13,878 nucleotides of DNA from a virus (taxonomy: Duplodnaviria; Heunggongvirae; Uroviricota; Caudoviricetes). Below, in pieces: positions 3,351-3,863 of this stretch (position 1 is its first letter; each line of letters begins with the position of its first letter). Both the position numbers and the translations under genes were made by a program. The notes below the pieces were generated by a model. That model was not told the DNA's origin. It saw only the letters and a list, made by a program, of their open reading frames with translations, and searched no databases. Location: the IMG/VR virus record IMGVR_UViG_2529293142_000032, positions 1 to 13,878 of that record; one strand, given 5' to 3'.

Positions 3351-3841
3351 TGTCACAGCCTCCGTGGTGATGGGGAAACAATGTTGTAATTGTGGTGGTT
3401 AACACAAGGAAGGCGAAGTCCGTCTGTGGTGTTTGTTCTGGTGGCGGGCCGCTCTGAAGGGGAGGCGATAATCACCGCCCCTTTTGTGTGGCAGGGTAAT
3501 AGCTGCATCATCATAATGATTGTGCAGCCCACCAGCACAACGCAGAACGCATAAAGCCATCATGTAAGTGGATAACGGATTCGTGTTTTTTTGCGCGGGA
3601 TTTGCGCCATTTCGCCGGGCCGTTGGCATGGTGCTCTTCCCGTTCCGTGATGCTTTTGCCAGCCTCAATCTTTTTGCTCTGGTGTAGGTGCGTACGTAAT
3701 ACGTACGGAGTGTACAGGGTAATCAAAAGTGTGACTTAATTCACAAAAAAACAATGCCTCCGTATTGTCAGACAATGCTCAGCCAGGTAACCATTGCTAC
3801 GGTTATACGCTGTATAACCCGTATAAAGCTCAGGATCATTT

Positions 3842-3863
3842 GCGGCCTCATGGGCCGCTTTTT
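3842..3863 (+). terminator. Rho-independent terminator (plus orientation)
   Basis: GCGGCC-tcatg-GGCCGC stem-loop followed by TTTTT. It lies convergent to, and 34 nt beyond, the stop of the minus-strand gene ending at 3897. Confidence 0.55.

Follow-up and report, generated by a model that had tools for sequence, protein, structure and literature searches.

Does the spacer at the edge of the packaging genes of a phage satellite encode a small regulatory RNA, or does its wealth of palindromes belong to the DNA? The question is raised by positions 3680-3863 of the IMG/VR virus record IMGVR_UViG_2529293142_000032, whose first 13,878 nt were analyzed here and are referred to as the window. The window is part of a decayed phage satellite of Escherichia, of the capsid-forming phage-inducible chromosomal island type (PICI/cf-PICI). 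The 184 bp in question form the right-hand end of a 546-bp spacer (3351-3896) that sits between a gene resembling the terminase small subunit (TerS-like gene) and the phrog_1561 gene, both on the minus strand. The original prediction placed there a plus-strand small RNA that ends at a strong terminator and may act with a FinO-domain protein of the same island. All features that it listed for the region exist where it placed them. The explanation we consider best, at a probability of roughly 0.4, is that short, perfect DNA palindromes make up a lineage-specific, non-coding mosaic, after which a plus-strand intrinsic terminator would end a cis-antisense RNA of ~89 nt; the production, start and function of this RNA are predictions from the promoter and terminator described below.

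The proposed 3' end of the RNA is an intrinsic-terminator-like hairpin on the plus strand, GCGGCC-TCATG-GGCCGC at 3842-3858, followed by T5 at 3859-3863. The G+C-rich stem located directly before a U-tract identifies it, by sequence, as a plus-oriented and strand-specific intrinsic terminator, in agreement with the original prediction. The stem consists of 7 bp, 6 of which are G-C, with a 3-nt loop, GCGGCC(U)CAU(G)GGCCGC, and has a folding energy of -13.2 kcal/mol (RNAfold; z = -4.06 versus shuffles). Only the plus strand has the T-run, the minus strand reading AAAAA-hairpin-AAAUGAU. A whole-window scan ranks the site second among 19 terminator-like sites; with 15.8 expected, their number is no greater than chance. 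A relative of 97% identity, L001, has a T6 tail, and the terminator ends 34 nt from the stop codon of the TerS-like gene. No minus-strand terminator-like site was found inside the spacer, so that read-through of the minus-strand operon across it is possible; as the operon transcript may thus cross the spacer, the candidate RNA may be its cis-antisense partner. A plus-only strong terminator of matching layout is located at 1338-1355 (GGCTCGTTACGGCGAGCC, then T7), 27 nt past the stop of the minus-strand PerC-like open reading frame (ORF) 1382-1678, and the related island EC12 (L002) has a plus-strand KilA-N gene upstream of the equivalent site.

Promoter prediction, which had been suggested as a check, gives TTCACA-17-TATTGT at 3740..3768 on the plus strand as the best candidate in the spacer. 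This sigma-70-like promoter matches 9/12 consensus positions, sits 74 nt upstream of the terminator and has a predicted start near 3775. In a rough position weight matrix scan it scores 11.1, versus at most 6.6 elsewhere in the spacer on either strand, and scores of at least 10 are reached at 11 of the 27,756 window positions. No ORF judged plausible lies between this promoter and the terminator. The -35 hexamer is overlapped by a perfect CRP-type core, TGTGA-N6-TCACA (3730..3745), which is the sole perfect match in the window and was absent from the earlier list of features. The 29 bp around the core (3721-3749) are identical in L001, inside a patch (3718-3768) that is otherwise diverged; 12 of the 17 differences between the window and L001 in the 546-bp spacer fall within these 51 bp. 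A standard CRP-dependent promoter with class I or II geometry was considered and rejected, as the centre of the core, 3737.5, corresponds to about -37.5 rather than the -41.5 or -61.5 (+/- one helical turn) that is needed. On the minus strand, our reading of the sequence and the scans found no -10 hexamer at a distance fitting the core.

The lack of coding potential in 3351-3896 is borne out by the relatives, none of which has a gene annotated or called there. The spacer ORFs gave zero matches to PHROG families, in a comparison that included the 79-aa ORF 3765-4004, and a check by eye of the plus-strand starts at 3568, 3602, 3629, 3754 and 3775 revealed no Shine-Dalgarno sequence. Small peptides or a type I toxin, as products of the spacer ORFs, were rejected on the same grounds, that is, inspected starts without a ribosome-binding site and zero family matches.

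The palindromes are far denser than expected. The 3680-3863 region contains 7 inverted repeats that are perfect over arms of 5 bp or more, compared with 1.34 in dinucleotide shuffles, and 0 of 2000 shuffles equal this number. All seven consist of perfect Watson-Crick pairs, and two of them cannot form RNA loops because their spacers measure 1 nt. The 13-bp palindrome ATTGTC-A-GACAAT at 3764-3776 overlaps the -10 hexamer and the predicted start, and is broken by a T to C change at 3768 in L001. Two of the palindromes proposed as RNA hairpins turn out to be recurrent DNA motifs. One is the perfect 17-bp palindrome CGTACGTA-A-TACGTACG at 3691-3707, which extends to 3689..3709 with one or two conserved flanking bases on each side. 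The exact 19-mer of this palindrome is found in five satellite contigs (L062-L066) that are ~80% identical elsewhere. In 4 of the 5 contigs the palindrome and the stop codon of the phrog_1561 homologue overlap (...CTG CGT ACG TAA TAC GTA CGG), while in L062 the palindrome is situated 250 nt upstream of that homologue; the window copy is inverted relative to these copies. The proposal that it acts as an RNA hairpin is therefore not upheld, the palindrome being an invariant DNA motif of five diverged satellites that occurs at other positions. We also note that two E. coli phages carry a 24/25 match to the palindrome with its flanks within the coding sequence for an ORF6N-domain antirepressor (positions 27620-27644 in phi467, LN997803.1). 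The reading frame there differs from that of the satellite stop-codon context, and the flanks and the protein are unrelated.

The other is the 8-bp stem-loop of the original prediction, a perfect palindrome GGTTATAC-GCT-GTATAACC at 3801..3819 with two GTWWWAC boxes 10 bp apart. Its arms contain the 7-mer GTATAAC and its complement, and this 7-mer has 5 occurrences in the window versus 1.1 expected. The only other box pair, GTATAAC-AGC-GTTATAC at 2419-2435, is located 45-60 nt upstream of a plus-strand gene, 2480-2773, which is shortened here to 97 aa and has full-length homologues of 141-151 aa. One of these homologues carries the source name 'Arc-like DNA binding domain protein'. The assignment of an Arc-like fold is based on this source name, on the helix pattern, which is that of a ribbon-helix-helix protein, and on our reading of the sequence; the AlphaFold2 model has a low-confidence predicted local distance difference test score (pLDDT) of 52. 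The palindrome GTATAAC-N3-GTTATAC is present upstream of Arc-like homologues in prophage or satellite regions of E. coli, Salmonella and Klebsiella, with invariant arms, a variable spacer (AGC, ACC, GCT, AGT) and diverged flanks. In 4 of 5 lineages it is followed by an extended -10, TGnTAT(G/A)CT, the Salmonella form being TAG TATACT. Every Arc-like gene examined has the pattern GTWWWAC-N3-GTWWWAC once in its upstream region, and the pattern is otherwise present only at 3802-3818, where the boxes (GTTATAC-N3-GTATAAC) have equal spacing and are in everted order relative to the conserved site. A putative -10-like hexamer read from the sequence, TATAAA (3822..3827, plus), follows 3 nt past the palindrome; its geometry resembles that of the operator and TGnTAT(G/A)CT upstream of the Arc-like gene. 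Since the arms are sequence-invariant and equal to those of the operator-like palindrome of Arc-like genes, 3801-3819 is better read as a predicted protein-binding site than as an RNA stem. Just past the Arc-like gene, three direct repeats that end in CTGTCAC (TCTGTTTGTCAC GGTCTGTCAC TCTCTGTCAC, 2778-2812) are iteron-like or arm-site-like.

Taken together, the 17-bp palindrome and the Arc-operator-like palindrome would be explained most simply as protein-binding or recombination sites, and the promoter and terminator as the limits of an untranslated plus-strand RNA of ~89 nt, ~3775-3863. In its predicted layout, a single-stranded 5' region is followed by the stem-loop 3801-3819, an A/U-rich linker and the terminator. 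Over its whole length, such an RNA would be complementary to the untranslated spacer part of any transcript that reads the minus strand from the TerS-like gene towards the phrog_1561 and packaging genes, and would for this reason act in cis, possibly by duplex-directed processing or by transcriptional interference, as do GadY, lambda OOP and P22 sar. The CRP-type palindrome would lie over the promoter and the Arc-type operator at about +27 to +45, positions that suggest control of the unit at the DNA level. A real RNA would most probably be lineage-specific, act as a cis-antisense partner and be controlled at the DNA level; it would represent a rare case of RNA-level control inside a PICI, at the junction of the replication and packaging-specificity genes.

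Comparison with known systems gives partial likenesses. GadY, encoded in the gadX-gadW spacer of E. coli, is a short, untranslated RNA from the opposite strand with an intrinsic terminator, and acts on the intercistronic or 3' part of an mRNA (PMC5415839). The candidate likewise is on the opposite strand between co-oriented genes and has an intrinsic terminator. GadY, however, is conserved, experimentally proven, Hfq-binding and overlaps the gadX 3' untranslated region (UTR), whereas the candidate has no homologues, is predicted only and ends 34 nt short of the upstream gene's stop. The lambda OOP and P22 sar RNAs are antisense RNAs of ~70-77 nt in regulatory regions of mobile elements, convergent with an operon and ending at a strong terminator; sar belongs to the Arc-controlled immI region, and the candidate carries an Arc-operator-like palindrome (PMC5415839). 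In contrast to OOP, which overlaps the cII 3' end, and sar, which overlaps the ant ribosome-binding site, the candidate is clear of coding sequences and ribosome-binding sites. The C4/CI immunity RNAs of P1, P7 and satellite P4 are also small regulatory RNAs of phages or satellites, but the candidate has no Rfam match and the island is of the PICI/cf-PICI type, not P4-like. The 3801-3819 site shares with Arc/Mnt-type operators the two short boxes one helical turn apart, the sequence of the Arc-gene palindrome boxes and the -10-like hexamer that follows; it differs in the everted order of the boxes, and binding is predicted from sequence, with the Arc-like fold unconfirmed at a pLDDT of 52.

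Several results weigh against an RNA at this locus. The closest diverged relative, L001, has the -10 TATTGC, in which T6 is lost, and a promoter spacer of 16 nt, a length also seen in L035. The fold of the whole RNA, at -25.5 kcal/mol, is not significant (z = -1.57; range for the whole RNA -1.57 to -1.86, about -1.6 to -1.9). Beyond copies that are at least 97% identical, megablast and blastn searches of 5,426 complete E. coli genomes and of phages and plasmids gave no homologue of 3545-3896: a single one of these genomes contains the sequence, as do eight assemblies (99.5-100% identity), and no copy was found in phage or plasmid records. A protein-guided locus search of the genome collection found nothing, and scans of viral, genome and metagenome collections for the DNA pattern of stem-loop and terminator gave chance matches only, with no extended similarity. 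A 31-nt match in 36 E. coli genomes was discarded, being inside an unrelated coding sequence. As only copies of at least 97% identity exist, the RNA has no support from covariation. The Rfam covariance models, among them those of the C4/CI phage RNAs, gave no match at the gathering threshold, and a permissive search gave three chance-level matches only (E = 2.5-8.9), none of them within the region. No comparable antisense promoter-terminator unit is present in the three other spacer types that follow allelic TerS-like genes. Finally, the island is decayed, with an IS256-family transposase, a frameshifted TerS-like gene and no packaging genes, and the promoter-terminator unit could be a relic. 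Of the original claim of a plus-strand small RNA, the discrete ~89-nt transcript thus remains plausible from the promoter and terminator, and RNA-level conservation is unsupported; the candidate is best described as a plausible but unproven orphan antisense RNA.

Among the other explanations, one that we take seriously without favouring it is that no functional RNA is made. The region would then be an operator or recombination mosaic at a module junction, acting at the DNA level, and the hairpin with its T-run an insulator or relic that stops stray antisense transcription into the TerS-like/replication operon. The seven perfect Watson-Crick repeats, two of them with 1-nt spacers unable to loop as RNA, fit this explanation, as do the two sequence-invariant palindromes found elsewhere, the wholesale exchange between lineages of the spacer past the TerS-like alleles and the failure of L001 to keep the promoter. 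The arrangement also recurs, in that the plus-only terminator 1338-1355 likewise lies just past a minus-strand PerC-like stop (1382). At 7255-7276 there is a third plus-strand terminator, ~85 nt beyond the second PerC stop codon, although here a minus-strand terminator intervenes. An insulator would nevertheless imply a nearby plus-strand promoter, and the best promoter of the spacer is found at a distance from the terminator that is typical of small RNAs. The case is a caution that perfect palindromes packed densely into a satellite spacer can be conserved motifs of the DNA and not RNA stems. It is unlikely that a longer plus-strand transcript ends at 3863, either one of ~340 nt from a promoter-like GTGGCA-18-CATAAT at 3488-3517 or one that starts from the plus-strand genes to the left (1792-2773) and runs antisense through the phrog_1561 gene. 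Both possible origins exist, but the 3488-3517 site scores only 6.5, and any transcription arriving from the left would run into the plus-oriented hairpin and T-run of the module at 3451-3530, described below, before it reached 3863.

A role for the FinO-domain protein in the stability or pairing of a trans- or cis-acting RNA, as for FinP and FinO, is decidedly improbable, although the gene itself is real: the minus-strand gene 7631..8155 matches Pfam PF04352 (ProQ) with E = 1.1e-23. Members of the ProQ/FinO family generally bind RNAs with a terminator hairpin and a 3' U-tail, and the candidate would end in just such a structure. As in FinP of F-like plasmids, two stem-loops and a 3' tail are predicted, and a FinO-domain gene resides in the same element. 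FinP, however, is complementary to the 5' UTR and ribosome-binding site of traJ, whereas no 5' UTR or ribosome-binding site lies opposite the candidate, from which the next start codon is ~425 nt away; the first 'stem-loop' of the candidate is better explained as a DNA operator. The proposed partnership also finds no specific linkage, for ProQ/FinO-PerC modules are carried by islands whose spacers are of four unrelated types (EC12, L037, L042 and the window type); as the modules occur with each spacer type, the FinO gene and the spacer are not co-inherited. No target stands out within the island, where the energy of the best candidate duplex is ordinary versus all window segments. The 5' UTR of the Arc-like gene was rejected as a target: its -45.7 kcal/mol is unexceptional versus all window segments, and the accessibility-corrected gain has a z of about -1.4. 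A better-conserved small plus-strand unit, 7179-7283, moreover adjoins the FinO-PerC genes. A long shot even beside this is a cis-antisense RNA that couples CRP-type host physiology and an Arc-like repressor to the packaging-specificity genes and is stabilized by the ProQ/FinO chaperone of the island; if true, no FinO-RNA pair would have been described in a phage satellite before it. Least credible of all is a plus-strand small protein. The 42-aa ORF 3754-3882 and the 79-aa ORF 3765-4004 do exist, but both span the terminator hairpin, the ATGs at 3754 and 3775 have no Shine-Dalgarno sequence, and neither was called as a gene in any assembly. The 79-aa ORF, which the original prediction had singled out as possibly translated and conserved, has no family match and is antisense to the TerS-like gene. 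The untranslated ~89-nt antisense RNA within a mosaic of DNA motifs remains our preferred, tentative reading.

The by-products of the analysis are perhaps more useful than the candidate itself: the unit adjacent to the FinO-PerC genes, a multi-hairpin module and an excess of Chi sites. A literature search on PICI-borne ProQ/FinO genes found annotation mentions only (PMC13612085), and no RNA partner is known for them. The spacer 7124-7361, directly downstream of the FinO-PerC genes, holds the better-supported and better-conserved small plus-strand unit, ~7179-7283, which is also closer to the FinO gene than the 3775-3863 candidate. Its plus-strand promoter at ~7179-7207 is an invariant TTGCGA-17-TA(A/G)TAT with a score of 10, placed back-to-back with the promoter of a 57-aa gene. 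The spacer has convergent terminators, plus 7255-7276 with T8 and minus 7316-7292, and the plus-strand one shows two compensatory pairs among six sequences. The predicted RNA of ~70 nt, ~7214-7283, carries a conserved CAUCCUUU just before this terminator.

Nearly all genes of the window are carried by the minus strand. They include a D5-type primase-helicase gene (9184-11016), an SSB gene, genes for two PerC-like regulators and Icd-like genes, while an IS256-family transposase gene (1-1209) occupies the left window end. The phrog_1561 gene (3066..3350, minus) encodes 94 aa and matches its PHROG with E = 7.7e-49. Many E. coli relatives are window-like from 3063/3066 onwards, and left of this boundary they have the genes for capsid, portal and terminase. 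In intact cf-PICI elements the packaging module thus begins with the phrog_1561 gene; the module is absent from the window. The TerS-like gene (3897..4430, minus) encodes a winged helix-turn-helix (HTH) protein that matches PHROG 57, terminase small subunit, with E = 1.8e-13; the prior annotation was only 'HTH'. It is frameshifted in the window and intact, with 177 aa, in relatives that include ones with an identical spacer. Three other allelic forms exist: P0002 and P0004, at 79-85% protein identity, and the EC12 form, which has its size and 3'-terminal DNA similarity in common with the window form. Each of the three precedes its own unrelated spacer, indicating wholesale spacer replacement between lineages. 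The consecutive minus-strand genes 3897-4430 and 4426-4836 match opposite halves, N-terminal and C-terminal, of the PHROG 57 profile, and their products may be Rpp-like packaging-redirection proteins. Comparison of the TerS-like proteins with solved Rpp or Nu1 structures gave zero sequence match. A lambda-type cos site was sought and dismissed, no cosN-like sequence being present at up to 2 mismatches. The allelic spacer of EC12 has a strong minus-strand sense promoter, TTAACC-17-TATAAT at 5725-5753 (score 12.9). A minus-strand hairpin with a T-run (GGCGC...GGGGCGC TTTTTGTT) follows ~60 nt past it at ~5650-5680, upstream of the phrog_1561 gene. This layout of promoter and then terminator suggests that the packaging operon may be under antitermination control.

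The second plus-oriented hairpin with a T-run that had been reported near 3463-3489 was located at ~3456-3484, followed by TTTTGTGTGG, and proves to be one half of a larger structure. A module of ~80 nt (3451..3530, plus) consists of this hairpin, TTTTGTGTGGCAGGGT and a second hairpin, and is flanked by an inverted repeat, 3433-3444 / 3529-3540. An inverted copy is present in the window at 2948-2879, or 2948-2870 at its widest (minus), and further copies are found in EC12 (2570-2675), L028 (7480-7585) and L036 (6915-7020). The linker, TTTTGTGTGGCAGGGT(G/A)(G/A)TAGCT, is conserved and single-stranded, the module recurs as two or three hairpins, and both hairpins carry compensatory changes. Folding gives z = -3.32 for 3455-3540 on the plus strand and z = -5.33 for 3425-3545 on the minus strand. 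The T-run of the other copies points the same way as the minus-strand gene before it, as expected of a terminator, and only the spacer copy is plus-oriented. The module has no match in Rfam; a terminator cassette and a protein-binding array are the candidates for its role. Nearby, 2760-3060 is a run of about seven hairpins.

The window is also rich in Chi sites (GCTGGTGG), with twelve in 13.9 kb versus 0.5 expected from shuffles. They are located at 2322+, 3020-, 3292+, 3529-, 7770-, 8592+, 8618-, 9498-, 10181+, 11701+, 12540- and 12572-. A search of titles and abstracts found no paper on a Chi excess in PICIs. The density in the window and related satellites, ~0.9-1.25 per kb, is about five-fold that of the adjacent chromosomal flank (0.2 per kb). 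Four of the sites cluster around the phrog_1561 gene, where the orientation of the pairs 2322+/3020- and 3292+/3529- would protect DNA ends arising between them.

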